Shown here: positions 900-10,709 of the stretch, piece by piece | How the letters are laid out: each line of letters begins with the position of its first letter | Position numbering within the stretch: the stretch's first letter is position 1 | Assembly (NCBI RefSeq): GCF_002075285.3 | Contig: NZ_CP021983.2 | Location: 3,540,001-3,572,000 of the forward strand | DNA from: Halomicronema hongdechloris C2206 | Lineage (GTDB): Bacteria; Cyanobacteriota; Cyanobacteriia; Phormidesmidales; Phormidesmidaceae | Direction of reading: 5' to 3' | Length of the DNA: 32,000 nt | Position numbers and translations under genes: made by a program | The notes under the pieces: model-generated | What the model was told of the DNA's origin: nothing | Seen by the model: only the letters and a program-made list of their open reading frames with translations | The model's database searches: none

Positions 900-914
900 T
901 GCCACACGTTATGC
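855..914 (+). repeat. attC-like site D (60 nt)
   Basis: Left box GTCCAAC (855-861) and right box GTTATGC (908-914). Between them, 871-898 folds as CAGCGG-a-CGGCGC / GCGCCG-CCGCTG, a 12-bp stem with one bulged A and a 3-nt loop. It sits exactly at the switch from G+C-rich to AT-rich DNA. Confidence 0.55.
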
Positions 915-1030
915 GGCTTTAACTTTTGGTGGTGAGACGGTATTTGAAGGCTACTGACTAGATGATGCGAGTTTAGAAAAGTCATGGTGAGATAGATCGC
1001 TCTTAGCGAGGAATATGACTTTTGTATAGG

Positions 1031-1876
1031 TTATGTTAAAAAGTTGTAGTGCTCACAAAGCTTCTTCAACTTGCTTATTAATTGATTTTGTACGCTTGCA
1101 GGAGATAAAACTAGACATTCTTCCCCATAACGTAGGATCTCTCGAATAAACCAGAATGTATTTGATACACGTCTAACTATGTAGCGAGCATCGTCCTTTA
1201 CCTCATTGGTTATGTCATCTGGTTTAGGTTCATAAGCTTTTACCAACCTTCCCAATACTTGTAAGTGCACTTCGATATATTCAAGCCGATCTTGCCAACT
1301 GCCACTTGCTGGCAAGACGTTGATAATTCTATCTAAACGGAAGCAACGGTTATGGATTAGCTCGGGTAGATTCAAGCTACCCTCCGTTTCCTCACACCAT
1401 GCTTCTAGATAGAATCGCTTTTCCCAAAAGCGAATTTCGCCGTAGCGAACGGTAAATTCCATCTGTTTGTTTTGAGAGTCTTCATAAAACAGATGAAAAG
1501 GCTGTTTAGCTTTAATTTGCTGATCAATGACTCTACGCCATGATTCAGTAGGATGACTAACTTGTTCCAGCAGTGCCTGGCGTAAAGGTGTCTCTAAATT
1601 GCCATGTTCTAGTAGGAAAAGGGCCAAAGTCTGTGCATCGGCAATATGACCAGAATCAACCAATAGTCTTATAGCTTGTCTGATGGCTGTATTTTGACTT
1701 GGGTCAAGTGCAAGTACACTGCCAACCTCAAGTTGGTGTTGAGCGATCGCCACGACTAACCCTGAAATACTGGGTTTATCGCCCCACATAATGCCTAAGC
1801 CATCAGCTATTGCCTCTAACTGCTCTTTAGTTCCAGGTGGGATGGAAAGTGTGATTGTCTCCTTTCTACGCGCCAT
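1031..1876 (-). CDS. WYL-domain transcriptional regulator with an N-terminal ribbon-helix-helix-like segment (281 aa)
   Basis: The N-terminus TITLSIPPGTKEQLEAIA is RHH-like. A WYL-type core (FTVRYGEIRFWEKRFYLEAWCEE ... RCFRLDRI) is followed by a C-terminal extension, as in BrxR/CapW-class regulators. It is transcribed divergently from the operon starting at 2182. Confidence 0.75.
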   Translation of the reverse strand: MARRKETITLSIPPGTKEQLEAIADGLGIMWGDKPSISGLVVAIAQHQLEVGSVLALDPSQNTAIRQAIRLLVDSGHIADAQTLALFLLEHGNLETPLRQALLEQVSHPTESWRRVIDQQIKAKQPFHLFYEDSQNKQMEFTVRYGEIRFWEKRFYLEAWCEETEGSLNLPELIHNRCFRLDRIINVLPASGSWQDRLEYIEVHLQVLGRLVKAYEPKPDDITNEVKDDARYIVRRVSNTFWFIREILRYGEECLVLSPASVQNQLISKLKKLCEHYNFLT

Positions 1877-2181
1877 TTTAGTTATACTTGCACCTTTCAG
1901 GAAATGTCGTTAGTATACATATATAGTCCATTCTCTCAAAATCTTACCTGAGTTTACTCAATTGTATCACCGTCTCAGTGAGGGATTCCCAGCATTACCC
2001 TGGAAATCAATATCTGCTGTGTGTCAGTGAAGAATCCTGGATCACGTGGATTTACAGAGATACTTCGTGAGAATAACCCTGTTCTTCGGCTTCAGCTAAT
2101 TGAGTCAAGAAGTCTGTAAACCAAAGCTAGCAGTAAACTTCAAACTCATTCACTCGAGTTCAATTCCCAGCGAGGTCTCAA
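1877..2181. promoter_or_regulatory. Divergent intergenic control region (305 bp) between the WYL regulator and the MBL/E2-E1-JAB operon
   Basis: Both genes must be promoted from here. It contains an imperfect palindrome GATTCCCAG-N7-CTGGAAATC (1984-2008) and related half-sites (GAATCCTGG / GTGGATT, about 2031-2055). No promoter boxes are called with confidence. Confidence 0.4.
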
Positions 2182-3327
2182 ATGCACAAAGTTATTTTCT
2201 ATCCAGTACAAAATGGTGATACGAGCCAAATTATTTTGAGTAATGGTAAGCGCCTATTATTTGACTTTCGCCATTTGAATCGTGGGGAGAAGGAGGATGA
2301 TCCTGCTATTGATCTCAAAAGCCAACTAAATAGCGAACTTGCGAAAGCAAAACGCGATTACTTTGATGTTCTAGCTCTTACCCACGCAGATTTGGATCAC
2401 ATCTTGCATAGCACCGAGTTCTTTGAGCTACAGCACAATCCTGCTTATCAAGGCAATGGACGAATCAAGGTTAATGAGTTGTGGGTTCCAGCCGCCATGG
2501 TACTGGAGACAGCTACAACCGAGCAGTGGAAAACAAAAACAGAGTTTGTCCTTTGGCGTCAGGAGGCTCGGCACCGTCTTCTTAGAGGCGAGGGTATTAA
2601 GGTTTTCTCAAAACCGAAAAAGTTGAAAAGCTTCCTTGAGGAAAATGGGCTAACTGTAGAGTCACGTCGTGGCCTAATTGTTGATGCTGGAAAACCAGCT
2701 GTTCCAGGATTCTCTCTTGAGAAAGATGGCGTTGAATTCTTCTGCCATTCTCCATTCGTTAAGCATGTTGATGAAGGCGATGACTTACGAAATGATGCCT
2801 CGCTTATTCTCCAAGTTCGTTTTGAAGTTGCAGGTATTCAAACCAACTACCTTGCTGTGGGGGACTCAACCTGTGGCGTGCTTGAAGATATTGTACACAC
2901 CACTAAAGAGCACGAAAATGAAGACAGATTGGAATGGCATTTGTTTAACATCCCTCATCATTGCAGCCATCACGCCCTGAATTCAGACGACAAAGGTGAT
3001 AAAGAAACAGTTCCCCTTCCTTTAGTGAAAGAACTGCTCATGTACGGTCAATCAGGAGCCTACATTGTGAGTTCAAGCAAGCCAATTCCTGATACTAAAG
3101 GAGCCTACCAACAGGAACTCCCACCCCATATCCAAGCAAGAAAATGCTACGAACGGTACTTGAGGCAGATCGGTGGACGGAGGTTCGTTGTCACTATGGA
3201 GGAGCCGAACGAACGAAAGCCACAGCCTTTGGAGTTTGATATCACCAGCGCAGGAGTCAGTTTGAATACGACTGGAAACTCTGGTGTTAACATCATTGTC
3301 TCTTCTCCAACACCAAGGGCAGGTTAG
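2182..3327 (+). CDS. Metallo-beta-lactamase-fold protein, ComEC/Rec2-like subtype (381 aa), ending in ...PRAG
   Basis: THADLDH (aa 67-73) occupies the HxHxDH position. IPHHCSHH, followed by AYIVSSS...PPH, resembles the HHGS...HP tail of ComEC-type MBL domains. GCGAGG lies about 12 nt upstream of the ATG. The stop TAG (3325-3327) directly abuts the next ATG. Confidence 0.8.
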   Translation: MHKVIFYPVQNGDTSQIILSNGKRLLFDFRHLNRGEKEDDPAIDLKSQLNSELAKAKRDYFDVLALTHADLDHILHSTEFFELQHNPAYQGNGRIKVNELWVPAAMVLETATTEQWKTKTEFVLWRQEARHRLLRGEGIKVFSKPKKLKSFLEENGLTVESRRGLIVDAGKPAVPGFSLEKDGVEFFCHSPFVKHVDEGDDLRNDASLILQVRFEVAGIQTNYLAVGDSTCGVLEDIVHTTKEHENEDRLEWHLFNIPHHCSHHALNSDDKGDKETVPLPLVKELLMYGQSGAYIVSSSKPIPDTKGAYQQELPPHIQARKCYERYLRQIGGRRFVVTMEEPNERKPQPLEFDITSAGVSLNTTGNSGVNIIVSSPTPRAG

Positions 3328-5571
3328 ATGGCAGATACATATACCAACTTTGGTGAGGTAATTTCTGAACTCACCGAAGACACCTTGGTTATCCCAATCT
3401 CGCGTCGAGTTTTTAGAGCTTGTTCTACCCATAATTTATTTGAGCTTATCGAGCTAAGATGTTTTGTTCACGACGGGCAACGCACAGCGGAAATGCTCGT
3501 TGTTGATTGCACTAATGACAGTGTCCCTACCAAAAACGAAATTGGGATCCTCTACCAAGAGCGTATTGGCTTAATCTTCAGTACTGAAGAAACCAAAATG
3601 CCTGAGATACGAGCGTTGCGAAAAGATTTCCCCGTAACCTCACACCAAAATCTTGTTAGAAAGGATGAACCTGCGTCGTTGTGCCTTTATTTTGAACCTT
3701 GGGAAGTAGTGCAACGTTCTTGGACTCCTCGAAGCCATCTTAATCGAGTATTATGGTGGCTTTCTGAAACCGCTAGAGGCACTTTACATCGTGAAGATCA
3801 ACCAGTTGAACCGTTCTATTTTCGCAGTCTCTTCGAGATTATCCTACCTCCAAATTTTGACGAAAAAATTCAGCATCCTGATTTTTTTCTGACGCTCAAA
3901 AGAGTAGAGAATAGAGTCTTTTTAGGATGCTTTTTACAAGCTTCCAGGAAAAAAAGTGTTCAGATAGAGCTAACCTGTCTCGCTATTGCTCTTCAACCAG
4001 TAACTCACGGCTTTATTGAACCTTTTCCATATGATTTAGGAACACTTGACAAGCAATTTTCAGCGCGAGGCGCTACTCTGTTCGATTTGCTTTGTGCTGA
4101 GATCAAGCGTAGCGTGAATGGAGAAGGAACTCCAAAGGTATCTGATAGTAAAACACTTCTTATTTTTCAGATACCTGTTCAACGAAGTGGCAATAGTGTT
4201 GTAGAGCGAAATGAATACAAAGCGTTCTATCTCAACATCAATCTTGGGAAGTTAGGCGAAGCATGCGGTGTGTTAACAGATGGCACAGATGGTAACTACT
4301 ACAATATTCCTGCTTTTGGCGAAGATTTGAGTTCCAATGATGCTTGGCGCTCTATTGACGTTGAACCGATCGAGATTATATTCTCTCTGACTTATGAAAC
4401 TGCACGCCAAGCTTCTGGTATCACTGCTGACACTGCTGAACTTTCTGGTGTTCTTGCAGGTGTTGGGGCACTTGGTAGCAGTCTTGCCGACATCTGGTAT
4501 CGAGAGGCGTGGGGCACCTGGACATTTGTTGATATCGATTACATTAAGCCGCATAATTTAGCCCGACATACAGCTAAACATTTTCAGGTTGGTCAGTTTA
4601 AAGCAAATGCAGTCAAACAAACAGTAGAGGAAACCTATTTTGACGGCTATGCAAAAGCTTCTGCTATTGTCGATAGTGTGACTAATTGGTCAAATGCAGA
4701 CTTGAAGACTGCTGTTGAAAGTGCAGATTTAGTAGTTGATGCAACAACTACGCTTGCAGTGCCGCGTGATTTAGCGATCGCTGACCTTAAACGATCAGCA
4801 TCTATTTTTCTAACTCCTTCTGGACACGACTCTGTTTTACTTCTCGAAGATTCCGATCGGAACGTACGCTTAGATGGACTGGAGGCACAATATTACGAAG
4901 CCATCTTGAATAATGCTTGGGGTGAGCAACATCTGCTTGGACATCAAGGGCATCTTTGGGTTGGTGCAGGATGTCGTGATGTATCAAGTGTGATACCAGT
5001 CGAGCTTCTTCAGCTTCATGCTGCAACACTTGCACGGCAAGTTAGGCTCAGATGTGAGCAACCCGATCCTGTAATCTCGGTATGGCATGTTGAGCAGCTA
5101 TCTGGGACCATTAATGTTCACACAATATCTGTGGCTGCAAACCTAACTGTGGCTGCTAATGGTTGGAACATTATATGGAACGCTCGCTTGCAGGATAAGG
5201 CTAGGCAAATTCGTGCTGCTAATCTTCCAAATGAAACGGGCGGAGTCTTACTCGGCTATTTTGATCAAAAATTACAGTCAATCTTCGTGGTCGATATCCT
5301 CTCTGCTCCCTTAGACAGTGCAGCAGATTCAAGTGGATTTATACGCGGCGTTCAGGGTCTTGAGGAACAGATCAAAATGGCGCAAGCACGGACAGCTAAC
5401 ATTGTGTCCTACATTGGTGAATGGCATTCTCATCCACCAGGAATCTCAGCTAGACCGAGTGGATACGATATCAACCTCTTGAGCTATCTTGCTGAGATTC
5501 TCAATCGTGATGGACTGCCAGGTGTAATGCTCATTGTTGGTGAAAATCAGGAAACATGGTCAATCCGATAA
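3328..5571 (+). CDS. Single-chain E2-like / E1-like (ThiF) / JAB (JAMM) fusion protein (747 aa)
   Basis: E2-like module: SHQN (aa 105-108) then SLCLY, with Cys119 at nt 3682-3684. E1 module: GVGALGS (aa 378-384), FVDIDYIKPHNLARH (aa 400-414) and GAGCRD (Cys549). JAB module: NETGGVLLG (Glu636) and HSHPPGISARPSGYD (aa 700-714, His700 at nt 5425-5427). Confidence 0.85.
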   Translation: MADTYTNFGEVISELTEDTLVIPISRRVFRACSTHNLFELIELRCFVHDGQRTAEMLVVDCTNDSVPTKNEIGILYQERIGLIFSTEETKMPEIRALRKDFPVTSHQNLVRKDEPASLCLYFEPWEVVQRSWTPRSHLNRVLWWLSETARGTLHREDQPVEPFYFRSLFEIILPPNFDEKIQHPDFFLTLKRVENRVFLGCFLQASRKKSVQIELTCLAIALQPVTHGFIEPFPYDLGTLDKQFSARGATLFDLLCAEIKRSVNGEGTPKVSDSKTLLIFQIPVQRSGNSVVERNEYKAFYLNINLGKLGEACGVLTDGTDGNYYNIPAFGEDLSSNDAWRSIDVEPIEIIFSLTYETARQASGITADTAELSGVLAGVGALGSSLADIWYREAWGTWTFVDIDYIKPHNLARHTAKHFQVGQFKANAVKQTVEETYFDGYAKASAIVDSVTNWSNADLKTAVESADLVVDATTTLAVPRDLAIADLKRSASIFLTPSGHDSVLLLEDSDRNVRLDGLEAQYYEAILNNAWGEQHLLGHQGHLWVGAGCRDVSSVIPVELLQLHAATLARQVRLRCEQPDPVISVWHVEQLSGTINVHTISVAANLTVAANGWNIIWNARLQDKARQIRAANLPNETGGVLLGYFDQKLQSIFVVDILSAPLDSAADSSGFIRGVQGLEEQIKMAQARTANIVSYIGEWHSHPPGISARPSGYDINLLSYLAEILNRDGLPGVMLIVGENQETWSIR

Positions 5572-5587
5572 ATACAGGAGTAAACAT

Positions 5588-6376
5588 ATGGTTATAGATT
5601 TTATTGAAAAGAACTTTGATGATTATAACCGCAAGGCTAGACTAGCACCTGCCTTACTTGTTAGTTTACCGATCGCATTGACTGTCATTGCATTTTCCCC
5701 AAATCATGTTTGGTCATGGGGAGGAGTAGCCAGTTTGCTTGCTTGGTTTGGAATACTCAAGCTCTTGGCACAACTTGCTCGTGATATGGGTAAAGCTAAA
5801 GAAGAGGAGTTATACACTGCTTGGGGTGGTAAACCTACAACGTACTTTCTGCGGTACCGTACTACACGAAACAAAGTAAATTTGGCTCGTCAACATAGAA
5901 AGTTACATGAGTTAACAGGGCAGTCTATACCGAATGAAAGCGAAGAATTGGCTAATCCAGATTTAGCAGATCAAATATACGATACGTGTACTCAATTTTT
6001 GCTTTCTAAGACACGCGATCATAGTAAATTTTTTCTGATTTATGAAGAAAATTGCAATTATGGTTTTCGACGAAATTTACTAGGAATGAAATTCCTTGGA
6101 ATTTTAACTTCATCTATAGGTGTGTTTTTTATTGGAGCACAGTGTATTTCCAAAATTGGATTGCTTAATATATTTGCAGCCAGGCAAGTCAATAGTTTAA
6201 TTCAGGCAGGAACGAATTTACAATTCTCTAACTGTTCTTCATTATCAGTTGCTTGTTTACTGGTAAATTTTTTTCTGCTTATCGCCTGGTTATTGTGGAT
6301 CAATTCGGGTTGGGTGAAAATAGCAGCTGATGCATATGCGATCAGGCTACTTGAATCTTGTGAAAATTTACCCTAA
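5588..6376 (+). CDS. Membrane protein with about four predicted TM helices (262 aa), last gene of the operon
   Basis: The ATG at 5588 is preceded by AGGAG (5576-5580). The 5534 start in the ORF track would overlap the previous gene and has no RBS. Hydrophobic segments are LAPALLVSLPIALTVIAF, GGVASLLAWFGILKLLAQL, FLGILTSSIGVFFIGAQ and LSVACLLVNFFLLIAWLLWI. I recognise no family. Confidence 0.7.
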   Translation: MVIDFIEKNFDDYNRKARLAPALLVSLPIALTVIAFSPNHVWSWGGVASLLAWFGILKLLAQLARDMGKAKEEELYTAWGGKPTTYFLRYRTTRNKVNLARQHRKLHELTGQSIPNESEELANPDLADQIYDTCTQFLLSKTRDHSKFFLIYEENCNYGFRRNLLGMKFLGILTSSIGVFFIGAQCISKIGLLNIFAARQVNSLIQAGTNLQFSNCSSLSVACLLVNFFLLIAWLLWINSGWVKIAADAYAIRLLESCENLP

Positions 6377-6469
6377 TGCTTCCTAAAGTTAGGTTTCTGC
6401 GCTATTTATAATGTTGAGTAACTCAGGCTGAATTGCGGTTTGTAGTTGCGAATCAGGCAAGCGCCAGCC

Positions 6470-6557
6470 ACATAACATTGCGCTGAACCGGAACGGAGCG
6501 TAAGCTTTCTGCTAAGTTGCAAAGGCTGTCGCCGTCCGGTTAGCTTAAACGTTAGAC
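6470..6557 (+). repeat. attC-like site A (88 nt)
   Basis: Left box ACATAAC (6470-6476) and right box GTTAGAC (6551-6557). The stem is AACCGG-a-ACGG (6486-6496) / CCGT-CCGGTT (6532-6541), with the same bulged-A architecture as sites D and B. It shares about 100 nt of similarity with sites B and C. Confidence 0.55.
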
Positions 6558-6745
6558 CGCTTAGCCCCAGTGGAGACAGTAACCTAAAAATCAAGCAAAC
6601 GTTCAATAATTGGTGAAAATAAAACCAAGGAGCTATCAAGGAATTTGACAGTGCAATTTAAATCTTGTTGTACTGTCCTCGTTTTCGAGAGTAAGATTTA
6701 AAGAAGATTTTTATCCCACTGTTCAAATACAGGGAGAGTGTAAAA

Positions 6746-8158
6746 ATGACTTCCATCAAAATCTCTGGTTCACATGATGACTTAGAGATGATTGAGTCAT
6801 TAAGCAAAGAGATTTTTCGAGAAAATGAAATCCCAGTTAAAACTCAAATTTCTGAGTTTCGTAAAGATAGCATTGATGCAGAAATCGTTCTGCCTGTACT
6901 TTCAGTTACTTTTAGTGGGGTGATAGCAGTTGCTCAAATAATTAATCTTATACTAAATATACAGGAGAAGAGAAGCAAGAGTATTGCCCAAAAAGATACT
7001 CCTATCTCCCTCAAAATTGAGGCAAGTAATGGAAAAGAACTAGATTTTAGGATTTCTGGTAGCACGACAAACGAAGAAATAAGAAAGTATTTGAGTTCTG
7101 TCAATCAATTTATTGATGATTTTCTTCGAGATGATGATGGCATTTCATTAAATAATGATCAGCTAGGAGAGACTGCAAGCTCAACAGATATCGAAAAGAT
7201 CAATTTGCTATTTAGAGGTTTGTTAAGCAATCTGACTGATATAAGAGAATGGAAATCTTTACCTCCAAAAAAGAATGGAGAAATAATTACTTTTAAATCA
7301 ACTTTTGAGAAAACTAGCTTGAGAAAACTTATTTGTAACTCCAGAGTTTCAAAGATCTACTTAAACTATGAGGAAGCCAAGCTTTGTAAAGGGCTATTCT
7401 ATATCTTGGAAAGGGAAAACATTTTAACTTTTCATGAATTAAGCGATGATTTTCGTGTAATTGACATGGAAAATATGTTTGTCAGATATGAAGTAGAAGA
7501 GCTTGCAATATTTAATAGAGTAAATCATCTTAAAAACTTTTTTCTAAACGATATATCCTCTCCATCTGCTACTGAAAACCTAGGTGAAGTAATTTCAATT
7601 TTGCTACTCTCAGCCGATCCATCTGATGCTACTAGATTAAGGATCGGAGAAGAATTTAGAGAAATCCAAGATAAGCTTCAACTAGCACAATTAAGAGAAC
7701 GGTTTAGACTAAATCTTCGGATGTCCGCTCGCCCAGAAGACATCAGCCAATCATTACTAGATTCGCAGCCACAAATTGTGCATTTTTCTGGTCATGGCTT
7801 AGCTACTGGTGAGTTGTGTTTTGAAGACAAAATAGGAAAAGTACATCCAGTTTCACCTGATGCCTTGGCAGCTTTATTTGAGCAATTTGCAAGTCAAATC
7901 AAATGTGTGCTGCTCAATGCTTGTTACTCAAAAGCTCAGGCGATTGCCATTGCTCAGCACATTGACTACGTGATTGTTATGAATCAAGCTATTGGCGATA
8001 AAGCTGCAATTGCATTCACTATTGGTTTTTATCAAGCACTAGGGGCAGGACGTACGTTCAAAGAAGCTCATAAATTTGGATGTATCCAAATTAGGTTACA
8101 AAGTATTCCCGAACACTTGACTCCTATTCTTCTTGAGAGAGGCGCATGTGATTACTAA
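6746..8158 (+). CDS. Membrane-anchored CHAT/caspase-like protease-domain protein (470 aa)
   Basis: RBS-like GGGAGAG lies upstream of the ATG. The N-terminal ~90 aa contain one hydrophobic helix (IVLPVLSVTFSGVIAVAQIINLIL), reminiscent of EACC1-type effector-associated modules. The C-terminal ~185 aa match the cyanobacterial CHAT-type module (ILLLSADPSD..RLRIGEEFREI..) with the His/Cys dyad in IVHFSGHG (His350) and LLNACYS (Cys393). The stop TAA lies in a TACTAAC box. Confidence 0.75.
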   Translation: MTSIKISGSHDDLEMIESLSKEIFRENEIPVKTQISEFRKDSIDAEIVLPVLSVTFSGVIAVAQIINLILNIQEKRSKSIAQKDTPISLKIEASNGKELDFRISGSTTNEEIRKYLSSVNQFIDDFLRDDDGISLNNDQLGETASSTDIEKINLLFRGLLSNLTDIREWKSLPPKKNGEIITFKSTFEKTSLRKLICNSRVSKIYLNYEEAKLCKGLFYILERENILTFHELSDDFRVIDMENMFVRYEVEELAIFNRVNHLKNFFLNDISSPSATENLGEVISILLLSADPSDATRLRIGEEFREIQDKLQLAQLRERFRLNLRMSARPEDISQSLLDSQPQIVHFSGHGLATGELCFEDKIGKVHPVSPDALAALFEQFASQIKCVLLNACYSKAQAIAIAQHIDYVIVMNQAIGDKAAIAFTIGFYQALGAGRTFKEAHKFGCIQIRLQSIPEHLTPILLERGACDY

Positions 8159-8167
8159 CGCTGTCTA

Positions 8168-8563
8168 ATCGGGATAGGGGAAAACCTCACGGTCTCCCCC
8201 TCCCACACCACCCATCGTGCGGGTCCGCAATGGGCGGTTCTCAACCTAAGTGCTAGACAGACTGACGGACTTGTCCTCGTAGCCCTGAACCTTCATCCAG
8301 AGGTCACGAATCGAAAGCAATCCCTGTTGTGCTAACCACTCATTCGTCATCCCTGTCTGCGTCGCCAACGTCCGCGACAACCGCCAATATCCCTTCCGGC
8401 TCAAGCCAGTGGAAAGGGCGTGCTGCCTCGGCGTTCCCAGTTTCAACAAATTGCCGATGCGCGTCCTCGGTCTACGCCATTGTTTCCAATAACACATCCG
8501 GATTCGTCGCCTCAGTGCGATCGCATATCGCCGTAGGTTGGGTTGAGACACGAAACCCAACAC
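8168..8563 (-). mobile_element. 5'-truncated group II intron remnant (3' end of the intron-encoded protein plus domains V and VI)
   Basis: The minus strand encodes the maturase tail. It is followed by a domain-V-like hairpin (8207-8238: 9-bp outer stem, 2-nt bulge, 4-bp inner stem, tetraloop). Next is a domain-VI-like helix (8171-8204) with a bulged A at 8175, 7 nt from the inferred 3' end at about 8168. The upper boundary is approximate. Confidence 0.7.
8246..8563 (-). pseudogene. Group II intron reverse transcriptase/maturase, C-terminal fragment only
   Basis: RRRIRMCYWKQWRRPRTRIGNLLKLGTPRQHALSTGLSRKGYWRLSRTLATQTGMTNEWLAQQGLLSIRDLW is the characteristic maturase (X/thumb) tail of intron-encoded proteins. 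The RT domain is absent. Confidence 0.75.
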
Positions 8564-8830: not shown

Positions 8831-9163
8831 CTAATGAAGTTCCAGACAGTGCAACTCGGGATTGTTCAAGAGTTCTTGAATTGCTGTTGCTCCGGAACGA
8901 ATTAATGCTTCGACTTGATTAGTTGGTGCATTGCCACATCGCAACCAAACAACTTTGGGTGGAGAGCCATAAAGCCGACTTCTTTCAGAGAAATCTGCAT
9001 CTTGCGTCACTATGCAAAAGTCATTGAGCTTAGCAAAATCCCAGATTTCAGTATCTGTTTTCTCAGCTAGGTCATGGAATTGAACGTGGCTGGATTCAGG
9101 AAAAATATCAGCCAACCGATTAATCAGCTTACGGCTAAGGTTTTGGTCAAACAGCAGCTTCAA
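8831..9163 (-). CDS. DUF5615-family (PIN-like/Mut7-C-like) putative toxin (110 aa)
   Basis: MKLLFDQNLSRKL...IWDFAKLNDFCIVTQDADFSE is typical of DUF5615 partners of DUF433. It overlaps the upstream gene by 4 nt. Confidence 0.75.
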   Translation of the reverse strand: MKLLFDQNLSRKLINRLADIFPESSHVQFHDLAEKTDTEIWDFAKLNDFCIVTQDADFSERSRLYGSPPKVVWLRCGNAPTNQVEALIRSGATAIQELLNNPELHCLELH

Positions 9164-9414
9164 GCAGCACTCACCGATGCAACTAAACGATGTTCGCGAT
9201 CAGCTGCGAACTCTAAACAAGCCCTAATGTCAGTTTCCGTTAATTCTGGAAAGTCGTCAATGATTTCAGCGGTAGACATACCAGCCGCTAACCAGCCCAA
9301 GACATCGTAGACCGTAATCCGCATCCGGCGGATGCATGGCTTGCCACCACGCTTATCAGGCTCAATCGTAATGATGTCGCGATAGCTCATAATACGGACA
9401 GGCTGCTTGTGCAT
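9160..9414 (-). CDS. DUF433-family putative antitoxin (84 aa; alternative start at 9390)
   Basis: ITIEPDKRGGKPCIRRMRITVYDVLGWLAAGMSTAEIIDDFPELTETDIRACLEFAA is the DUF433 signature. Confidence 0.75.
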   Translation of the reverse strand: MHKQPVRIMSYRDIITIEPDKRGGKPCIRRMRITVYDVLGWLAAGMSTAEIIDDFPELTETDIRACLEFAADREHRLVASVSAA

Positions 9415-9517: not shown

Positions 9518-10010
9518 CGCAAGGTTATCTTTGGAGCGTTCATCAATCTTATTTGTTGGAATTCAGCAGCTAGCCACTGCGAGTCCGTCTGAGGGCGACG
9601 CGCTTGAAAACTACTATAGAGAACTAATTTCCAGATGTCGTTGCAAGTTAAACTAGCGTTAGCTGCCAATTCGCTCGATCTGAACTGTACACTGTTGCCA
9701 TAGGTAGAAAGTGTTAAATACAAGGATTTTGCACCTAGAGTTACGAAACGAGGCCCTTTCGGAGGTGCTACCGAAATAGATTGTTTCTCCGCTGCTGTCA
9801 GTGCTGCGAATCATTGGCTTGAGAGTAACCCCGTACAAGTTGTGAATATCGAGACAATAATGTCGCCGAATGTCAAAAGTGCTACAGATGCTGGGGCATA
9901 CAGATTTGGTATGGGGTTAGATAACTGGCATCAGTATGTACATGTCTGGTATATGGAAGAACAGGAAAGTTATAATAATCCTTAAAATTATTGCGACAAT
10001 TGATTGGGGT

Positions 10011-10289
10011 ATGAGTCAGCAGCTAGTTTTGGAAATCAGCGATGAAGTTTACGCAGACTTGCAGCGTAAGGCGAATGCAGTGGGCGTATCCATCCCGGAG
10101 TGGATAATTACTGTTCTCAGCAGGCAAGGGGAAGCTGTCACCAAATTAATACTGTCTCCGGAGCGGCAAGAGCAAGCACGACAGAAATTCAAGAGTCATG
10201 CAGGTGCAATTAGTCTAGGGCACGCGACGGGTTCTGATAACCAAGCGATTGATGCTGATCTCGCAAGAGCTTATGCCGATGAGTATTAG
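10011..10289 (+). CDS. Antitoxin-like small protein, partner of the PIN toxin (92 aa)
   Basis: I prefer the start MSQQLVLEISDEVYADLQRKA at 10011; the 9936 start adds an implausible hydrophobic leader. The C-terminal GHATGSDNQAIDADLARAY motif is common in cyanobacterial PIN-associated antitoxins. The gene lies 15 nt upstream of the PIN gene. Confidence 0.65.
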   Translation: MSQQLVLEISDEVYADLQRKANAVGVSIPEWIITVLSRQGEAVTKLILSPERQEQARQKFKSHAGAISLGHATGSDNQAIDADLARAYADEY

Positions 10290-10304
10290 GCGCGGAGTGA
10301 CTTT

Positions 10305-10709
10305 GTGCTTCTAGATACATCAGGCTTGTTGTGCTACGTCCATCGTGACGAACCGCAGCATGAAAAGGCAGTTCAGTTAGTCGATGGTGCAGGCAGTAGA
10401 CTCTTGACTCACAGCCATGTTTTAGCTGAGTTGATTGCTCTTGCACTGGTTCGCCGACTTCCTCGGACAAAAGTTCTAGAGTTTGTGGTTGACCTGGTTG
10501 ATAACCCGGACATAGAAATAGTCTGGGTTGATGAGTCGCGACACCGAGAGGCAATGCAGCTTTTGGTTAATCGACAGGACAAAACCTACTCATTGTGCGA
10601 TGCGGTCAGTTTTGTCCTGATGCGCCAGCGTGGCATCAGCGATGCATTAACGACAGACTGTCACTTTGAGCAGGAGGGGTTTATCAGGTTGTTGCCGCCA
10701 GCAAGCTAA
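10305..10709 (+). CDS. vapC: PIN-domain ribonuclease toxin, VapC-like (134 aa, GTG start)
   Basis: LLDTSGL (first acidic residue), LTHSHVLAELIAL, SLCDAVSF and LTTDCHFEQEGF give the PIN acidic-residue pattern. The stop TAA lies inside the AGCTAAC box of attC-like site C. Confidence 0.75.
   Translation: MLLDTSGLLCYVHRDEPQHEKAVQLVDGAGSRLLTHSHVLAELIALALVRRLPRTKVLEFVVDLVDNPDIEIVWVDESRHREAMQLLVNRQDKTYSLCDAVSFVLMRQRGISDALTTDCHFEQEGFIRLLPPAS

Follow-up and report, generated by a model that had tools for sequence, protein, structure and literature searches.

What does a ubiquitin-activating enzyme act upon when no ubiquitin-like protein (Ubl) is encoded beside it? The question is raised by a locus of the cyanobacterium Halomicronema hongdechloris C2206, in which a gene for a hydrolase of the metallo-beta-lactamase (MBL) fold is followed immediately by a gene for a protein that fuses a ubiquitin-conjugating (E2), a ubiquitin-activating (E1) and a JAB peptidase module. 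The locus lies in a stretch of 32,000 nucleotides (contig NZ_CP021983.2, positions 3,540,001 to 3,572,000), here called the window, whose first letter is position 1 of all coordinates below. An original prediction made from these letters proposed that the MBL protein, through its free C-terminus, is itself the conjugated moiety. Comparative tests of the terminal glycine, the tail length, the absence of a Ubl, the catalytic cysteines, the adenylation and JAMM motifs and the kinship with Cap2, an enzyme of CBASS (the anti-phage signalling system based on cyclic oligonucleotides), support this proposal. Judged on sequence, the window probably contains an anti-phage operon of the 6A-MBL ('type 6a') kind, whose MBL enzyme would be conjugated via Gly381 by the E2-E1-JAB protein, and it appears likely that Gly381 is the E1 substrate.

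The C-terminal tail of the MBL protein

The MBL gene (2182..3327, plus strand) encodes a ComEC-like hydrolase of 381 residues that is 100% identical to XM38_033620 of H. hongdechloris C2206 and whose C-terminus reads ...NIIVSSPTPRAG. Its stop codon (TAG, 3325..3327) abuts the ATG of the E2-E1-JAB gene at 3328 with a spacer of 0 nucleotides (junction 3325..3330, plus strand), exactly as had been read originally, with an MBL end ...IVSSPTPRAG-TAG followed by the start of the next gene. The last four sense codons, CCA AGG GCA GGT (3313..3324, plus strand), specify P378-R379-A380-G381, with Gly381 as the proposed site of adenylation and conjugation.

A model of the protein computed with AlphaFold2 from an alignment of 46 sequences (mean predicted local distance difference test score, pLDDT, 92.2; predicted template-modelling score 0.90) adopts the MBL fold and is ordered up to a final beta-hairpin, residues 350-362 (LEFDITSAGVSLN), which is a confidently predicted part of the core. 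Beyond it, the block-mean pLDDT falls to 61, 51 and 53 across residues 361-381 and is below 50 for residues 366-375. Taken together with the column entropy of the alignment, these values mark out residues 363-381 (TTGNSGVNIIVSSPTPRAG; 3268..3324, plus strand) as a C-terminal tail that is predicted to be disordered. The tail of about 30 residues that had been proposed thus needs correction as regards length: its flexible part has about 19 residues, the segment 350-362 belonging to the core.

Column entropy is about 3 bits over the linker residues 359-377 and then 1.19 at P378, 0.26 at R379, 1.56 at A380 and 0 at G381. Gly381 occupies one of just 16 invariant columns in the 46-sequence alignment (42% mean column identity), where the other invariant positions include the core histidines and aspartates H68, D72, H189, D228 and H260; the conservation of R379 is 90% or more. 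Of the 120 homologues nearest to the window protein, with 61-100% identity, 107 have AG as their C-terminal end and 12 continue from RAG for 1-3 residues (C, KDE, NV, VK, SR, RR or VR), the last one being truncated. A more diverse set, of 65 full-length proteins each representing a cluster formed at 50% identity (28-61% identity to the window protein), gives a similar picture: 24 end in [R/K]-x-G, and in another 24 this motif is followed by no more than 8 residues; glycine is the last residue in eight that have neither arginine nor lysine at position -3, alanine is the last in two, and in most of the remaining seven a glycine is still found a few residues before the end. Among the 268 full-length members retrieved from a family of roughly 2,300, 254 carry [R/K]-x-G no more than 10 residues from the end, and in 183 glycine is the very last residue. 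The distance from P314 to this glycine is 67 residues in 165 of the 254 homologues (range 61-77), and it is this near constancy that identifies the length of the tail as a conserved property. Both the conservation of the glycine and that of the tail length, which the conjugation hypothesis leads one to expect, were therefore found, and the combination of the PRAG end with the gene order described below appears, on these alignments, far beyond chance. Since the glycine is invariant and sits on a flexible tail, the adjoining E2-E1-JAB protein most likely conjugates the MBL enzyme itself.

Extensions of 1-9 residues follow the glycine in about a quarter of the homologues and look like pro-peptides of the kind that a JAB peptidase takes off. 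Some ends are tandem (PPRAG-YRAG, PPRAG-WRAG, PPRAG-LESRPIRAG and APRAG-RGPSRAG, in loci L036, L041, L060 and L077 and in protein P0133), the extension itself terminating in RAG. Individual homologues have other peculiarities: a distant one (P0167) ends in ...GTGRFA, of which the last five residues are those of the CBASS cyclase CdnD of Enterobacter cloacae (...KTGRFA); in another (P0200) an MBL fragment is fused to a JAB domain and the C-terminus is ...AYRG; and a third (P0141) has an N-terminal extension of 348 residues preceding an MBL with a PRAG end.

Gene order and the search for a ubiquitin-like protein

A scan of a genome collection recovered 80 related loci from cyanobacteria, beta-, gamma- and deltaproteobacteria, Nitrospirota, Acidobacteriota, Patescibacteria and others, including two plasmids (L005 and L007). 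In all 80, a homologue of the E2-E1-JAB gene lies directly 3' of the MBL gene on the same strand. Seventy of the junctions are distinct; 21 of these abut, 27 overlap by one nucleotide (TGATG or TAATG), eight overlap by four nucleotides and the remaining 14 show various other short spacers or overlaps, so that a spacer of 0 nucleotides or an overlap is present in 56 of the 70. Tight coupling of the two genes is a family trait.

Such junctions invite an explanation at the level of nucleotides, in which the PRAG codons would merely form a ribosome-binding site for the abutting start and thereby couple translation. The codons CCA AGG GCA GGT are indeed purine- and G-rich and lie 4-15 nucleotides 5' of the ATG, and starts abut or overlap in most loci. 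Nonetheless, the amino acids are fixed while the codons vary: across the 70 distinct loci, the arginine of the motif is encoded by AGG (26), CGG (23), AGA (8), CGA (6), CGC (6) and CGT (1), and alanine and glycine use four codons each. With all synonymous codons for arginine, alanine and glycine in use, it is the protein that is under selection rather than a ribosome-binding site. The motif is also kept where the next start sits upstream of it or beyond it and where extensions follow. We accordingly rejected a ribosome-binding site as the reason for PRAG, an explanation with hardly any chance of being correct.

The Ubl was sought by clustering 6,173 open reading frames (ORFs) of at least 45 residues located within 6 kb on either side of the 80 loci and of the window cassette. 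No conserved Ubl-sized ORF outside the core genes was found in these 81 loci, in agreement with the original reading that no Ubl is encoded here. Several small-ORF 'families' that appeared near the cassette were dismissed as shadow ORFs inside large genes or as Arg/Pro-rich artefacts of GC-rich DNA. It might still be argued that a Ubl encoded elsewhere, or one that escapes recognition, is the real E1 substrate, with the MBL protein no more than its target or a neighbour; Iyer et al. (2006) considered that such systems might make use of 'the available ThiS/MoaD' (PMC1779556). We consider this very improbable, given that the cassette moves horizontally as a unit (a low-GC island here, the two plasmids, many phyla), that no Ubl accompanies it in the 80 loci and that the idea leaves an invariant glycine on a disordered tail of fixed length unexplained.

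The sequence of the MBL tail and junction is the same in eight loci (L030, L032, L034, L035, L037, L039, L040 and L043), and the genomes of this identical-junction group span Melaminivora, Pseudomonadaceae, Ectothiorhodospira, Stutzerimonas, Allochromatium and Sinimarinibacterium. The occurrence of one junction in such different genera suggests a recently spread mobile element. A gene for a RadC-like JAB protein is located 5' of the cassette in this group (scanned in L034; the ORF family is present in 10 loci).

The E2-E1-JAB protein

The partner gene (3328..5571, plus strand) encodes 747 residues, in which Pfam recognizes Prok-E2_A at residues 48-176 (1e-28), ThiF at 374-479 (1.2e-11) and Prok-JAB at 619-744 (1.1e-11), and the best PADLOC matches are CBASS E1-E2 (2.1e-23) and JAB (3.5e-23). 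In 73 distinct homologues of the fused protein only two cysteines are invariant, C119 and C549, the very residues on which conjugation had beforehand been expected to depend. The first (codon 3682..3684, plus strand) lies inside the Prok-E2_A match and is the putative E2 catalytic cysteine. The second (codon 4972..4974) closes the E1 adenylation module (4447..4974, plus strand), in which G378xG380xxG383, D402, R413, K425 and D471 are likewise invariant. The JAB/JAMM metallopeptidase domain delimited by Pfam (5182..5559, plus strand) has an equally invariant set of JAMM residues, E636, H700-S-H702, S711 and D714.

When a profile of the partner was compared with the PDB, the best solved relative was Cap2 (7to3, 6.1e-11), with whose adenylation domain the E1 module aligns, and the JAB domain matched a JAB peptidase of 156 residues (9ild, 6.1e-10). 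ThiF, MoeB, MccB and eukaryotic E1 enzymes rank below Cap2. The presence of ThiF, MoeB and MccB among the relatives of the adenylation domain brings up a non-conjugative chemistry, in which the E1 would adenylate Gly381 for thiocarboxylation, as with ThiS and MoaD, or for some other C-terminal modification, as with MccB; the prokaryotic enzymes from which E1 descends work in this way (PMC1779556). Such a role seems decidedly unlikely here, as every homologue has, fused to its E1, both a JAB isopeptidase and an E2 whose cysteine is invariant, the conjugating enzyme Cap2 gives the best PDB score and the loci showed neither a sulfur-transfer nor a rhodanese partner.

The fold of the MBL protein

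The MBL protein has no match in Pfam, and its PADLOC matches are to models of defence-associated MBL proteins (RTasMBL, 6.7e-12; LmuA, 1.1e-10; Avs1a, 2.6e-04). A sequence search of the PDB gave chance matches only, and neither this search nor Foldseek uncovered a solved structure of a family member. With the AlphaFold2 model as the query, the top Foldseek match is the beta-lactamase-like nuclease domain of ComEC (9ic4, 1.1e-13), followed by Pce esterase and then by remoter MBL-fold proteins that include tRNase Z and nucleases of the CPSF type. The protein carries the motif H68-A-D70-L-D72-H73, which we take to be the ComEC-type variant HADxDH, together with the invariant residues H189, D228 and H260. 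Loops of lower pLDDT occur around residues 111-120 and 191-210, and a separate beta-grasp domain is absent from the model.

These relationships bear on another way of reading the tail, as a recognition and cleavage site through which the JAB peptidase would switch a latent ComEC-like nuclease, E1 and E2 acting elsewhere. The fold and the PADLOC matches to models derived from DRT, Lamassu and Avs systems are compatible with such proteolytic gating, as are the extensions after the glycine, which would need removal, and the example of the trypsin-MBL systems, where the gene for an MBL nuclease lies just 5' of a protease-bearing gene and cleavage activates the nuclease (PMC12799240). Gating of this kind would nevertheless find nothing left to cleave in the 183 of 254 homologues that already terminate in glycine; it would leave the invariant E1 motifs and both catalytic cysteines without a substrate, no Ubl being encoded; and its model case, HamM, is cleaved within internal insertions and not at the C-terminus (PMC12799240). 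We therefore hold proteolytic gating as the sole function of the tail to be unlikely, and continue with conjugation of the MBL protein through Gly381.

Third genes and relatives without the tail

Downstream of the E2-E1-JAB gene, with its ATG 16 nucleotides past the stop codon, lies a third gene (5588..6376, plus strand) for a protein of 262 residues with four predicted transmembrane (TM) segments. Hydropathy places these at 17-42, 47-65, 165-198 and 214-247, in the numbering of the 263-residue translation from 5585 that begins one residue before the ATG; neither Pfam nor PADLOC gave a match for this protein. Its gene is found 3' of E2-E1-JAB in nine of the cyanobacterial loci (L001-L005 and L007-L010, 45-88% identity) and in L084, and a four-TM protein of about 240-280 residues is present in nine of ten cyanobacterial loci, L006 being too short to tell. 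It is a possible membrane effector. The TM family has 429 members, some of which form two-gene MBL-TM modules that lack E2-E1-JAB and stand beside restriction-modification systems (L085-L088). The additional locus L084, from Oscillatoria sp. FACHB-1407, has an MZB/PLD pair on one side of its MBL/E2-E1-JAB/TM cassette and a pPIWI_RE system on the other, and its MBL protein ends in ...PLPHG, retaining the glycine and lacking the arginine at -3.

Elsewhere the third gene is modular, being present after E2-E1-JAB in most loci and absent from some (L011-L080; examples are L048:9386-10504 and L023:9570-10067). A patatin-like phospholipase occupies this place in about 30-35 loci, usually with an overlap of four nucleotides, a second MBL protein of 289 residues in about 19 (e.g. 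L036:8737-9606) and the PADLOC candidates PDC-M48A/B in a few. By type, the patatin, TM and second MBL proteins resemble classes of CBASS effectors; the patatin and TM proteins gave no match to the PADLOC models of CBASS effectors. In 19 of 20 loci (within L029-L060) the C-terminus of the second MBL is TE-x-x-G, the exception ending in alanine, on a tail of just 3-4 residues past the last strand. Either this protein is another possible substrate of conjugation or the ending may be a quirk of the family.

Four homologues (P0124, P0136, P0171 and P0187) align with residues 1 to about 360 of the window MBL at 36-49% identity and have, in place of the tail, an AGS-C domain (PF18134, up to 2.8e-40) that matches the PADLOC models Cyclase (4.6e-51) and PycC (2e-08) and is also the sensor domain with which CBASS and Pycsar cyclases end. 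No E2-E1-JAB gene was found beside the AGS-C type on the recovered contigs of 7.1 kb and 2.5 kb (L082 and L083), where the MBL gene is followed in one case by a weakly patatin-like protein and in the other by a membrane protein. A metagenome scan with the AGS-C variant P0124 retrieved a 69%-identical match of the tail type (L081), with an RAG end, an E2-E1-JAB protein and a patatin. Proteins of another family, the PDC-M48B-like MBLs, are paired with TM homologues and lack both E2-E1-JAB and a C-terminal glycine. In this small sample of negative controls the correlation between the tail and E2-E1-JAB runs in the right direction.

The modularity of the third gene and the existence of the AGS-C variants suggest that the MBL protein is a regulated upstream enzyme and not necessarily the sole effector. 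Its designation as 'the effector' in the original prediction is in this respect perhaps too simple, a third gene being present in most loci, although the ComEC-like fold and the kinship with HamM-type nucleases mean that the protein may act as a nuclease effector.

A proposed mechanism of MBL conjugation

The following scheme would account for these observations. The ComEC-like MBL enzyme would present its disordered tail of about 19 residues with Gly381 in the role of the C-terminus of ubiquitin, and the tail would enter the E1 adenylation site of the co-translated E2-E1-JAB protein. Gly381 would be adenylated, transferred as a thioester to Cys549 of the E1 and thence to Cys119 of the E2, and finally ligated to an amine of a putative target. 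The fused JAB domain would cut after the glycine, both trimming the short extensions and reversing conjugates. By analogy with type II CBASS, conjugation would most likely prime or activate the MBL enzyme and the JAB domain dampen it, and the downstream four-TM protein may act as a separate effector. Of these steps, adenylation and the passing on of the thioester are inferred from the comparisons above, as are the target and the direction in which regulation runs.

Several considerations weigh against this scheme. The support for conjugation is comparative and predictive of structure only, and we found no biochemical proof of MBL conjugation in the accessible literature. The MBL enzyme is not a beta-grasp protein, and both its recognition by the E1 and the target of conjugation are putative. 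The conserved glycine could in principle serve only as a site of JAB recognition and cleavage. Moreover, the negative controls are few, amounting to two AGS-C loci and two types of MBL-TM locus.

If the MBL protein is conjugated via its own C-terminus, the 'substrate-as-modifier' chemistry of ubiquitin-like conjugation would not be peculiar to CBASS cyclases but would serve bacteria as a portable module for the regulation of unrelated enzymes. Handles for mutational and comparative work are offered by the invariant glycine, the fixed tail length, the natural extensions and the relatives with a swapped AGS-C domain.

Genomic context

The operon is part of an island (900..8160) that stands out in the composition profile, with 30-47% GC against about 58-60% for the genome and a fall of the GC fraction, from 0.66 to 0.39, around position 900. 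It comprises the WYL, MBL, E2-E1-JAB, TM and CHAT genes. Given its low GC content, its sharp boundary and its defence genes, this is probably a defence island acquired by horizontal transfer, and the present analysis provides an annotation of it for Halomicronema. No tRNA gene was found in the window, and a scan of positions 900-8400 for promoters and terminators returned signals at or below the expectation from shuffled sequence.

Upstream of the MBL gene and divergent from it lies a gene for a WYL/WCX-domain regulator of 281 residues (1031..1876, minus strand), which matches Pfam WCX (5.6e-08) and, below the curated cutoff, WYL (7.3e-04), as well as PADLOC WYL (3e-15). The regulator is kept 5' of the MBL gene at 90-93% identity in three loci (L001-L003), and a WYL protein is found 5' of the cassette in five further ones. 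At the other end of the island, a CHAT-domain (caspase-like) protein of 470 residues is encoded at 6746..8158, plus strand (Pfam, 3.8e-07; PADLOC 'chat', 3.5e-14). Its gene is not conserved beside the cassette in related loci, and it is therefore probably a separate defence gene. A first impression that the ORF at 8246..8563 is a fragment of a group II intron maturase found no support in Pfam and was dropped.

Two pairs of genes resembling toxin-antitoxin systems flank the island. One, on the minus strand (8831..9414), consists of a DUF433 gene (9160..9414) and a DUF5615/PIN-like gene (8831..9163); the other (9936..10709, plus strand) consists of a small ORF (9936..10289) followed by a PIN/VapC gene (10305..10709).

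Comparison with known systems

Several anti-phage systems share features with the operon. The pairs of trypsin-like proteases and MBL proteins (HamM-HamAB, Avs1/2, Lamassu and DRT; PMC12799240) are similar in having a ComEC-like MBL gene just 5' of a multidomain partner that bears a peptidase; in the window, however, this peptidase is a JAB domain fused to E2 and E1 and is not trypsin-like, and the trypsin-MBL systems are regulated by internal cleavage of gating insertions instead of through a C-terminal glycine tail (PMC12799240). The Bil and Bub operons (Chambers 2024; Hor 2024; PMC11601596) have in common with it the use of E1, E2 and JAB enzymes in an anti-phage setting and the trimming of C-terminal extensions by JAB that is proposed here, but they encode a dedicated beta-grasp Ubl, and none was found in the window operon.

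Type II CBASS, composed of a cyclase (CD-NTase, a nucleotidyltransferase resembling cGAS and DncV), the E2-E1 protein Cap2 and the JAB protein Cap3 (Ledvina et al. 2023; Jenson et al. 2023), offers a parallel that is close in detail. According to the Ledvina preprint (10.1101/2022.03.31.486616), the cyclase is adenylated by its Cap2 at the very end of the C-terminus, a reaction abolished by deletion of 19 residues; the E. cloacae cyclase CdnD has 381 residues and a disordered 19-residue tail with the end ...KTGRFA; Cap2 of this species uses C109 (E2) and C548 (E1); and Cap3 cuts exactly after the last residue. In CBASS, conjugation is activating and the JAB protein acts as its antagonist. The window counterpart is a Cap2-like E2-E1 protein with C119 and C549 in place of C109 and C548 and with a JAB domain, next to an MBL enzyme that also has 381 residues, a tail of about 19 residues, arginine at -3 and a small last residue (PRAG here, GRFA in CdnD). 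The use of AGS-C as an alternative C-terminal module in the MBL relatives, as in cyclases, and the modular downstream genes of the MBL loci, patatin and TM proteins among them, extend the likeness. The systems differ in that the window enzyme is a ComEC-like MBL hydrolase and not a nucleotidyltransferase, no cyclase match having been found among the island ORFs with Pfam or PADLOC, in that JAB is fused to the partner, and in that there is no known nucleotide second messenger.

These parallels lead us to a tentative and, at present, rather doubtful generalization, in which the MBL systems would form a CBASS-like family with a ComEC-type MBL phosphodiesterase, instead of a nucleotide cyclase, as the upstream enzyme under regulation. 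The family would have 'type I-like' forms, with an AGS-C sensor and no E2-E1-JAB, and 'type II-like' forms, with a glycine tail and E2-E1-JAB, both combined with swappable effectors (patatin phospholipase, four-TM protein or second MBL). Were this so, the MBL enzyme would make or destroy a small-molecule or nucleic-acid signal instead of being just a killing nuclease, and the second MBL of about 19 loci could be a second conjugation substrate.

The system itself is known. It corresponds to the operon known as 'type 6a' from the work of Iyer, Burroughs and Aravind (2006; PMC1779556), which usually consists of two genes and in which the MBL protein was not proposed as the substrate. Under the name 6A-MBL it is cited in PMC13276650, PMC11601596 and 10.1101/2025.09.30.679545 as an experimentally confirmed system against jumbo phages in Pseudomonas (van den Berg et al. 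2024), and a 2024 preprint (PMC11601596) states that MBL pathways employ an E2-E1 fusion for conjugating their enzyme. The mechanism was thus stated earlier, though we found no demonstration of it, and since the core idea is already in the literature, what the present analysis adds is confirmation and detail and not discovery. The window operon is a new cyanobacterial member. It shares with 6A-MBL the triple-module E2-E1-JAB protein next to a specialised MBL gene, the lack of a Ubl and the context of defence and mobile genes, and differs from it in its cyanobacterial host, its divergent WYL regulator and its conserved four-TM third gene.

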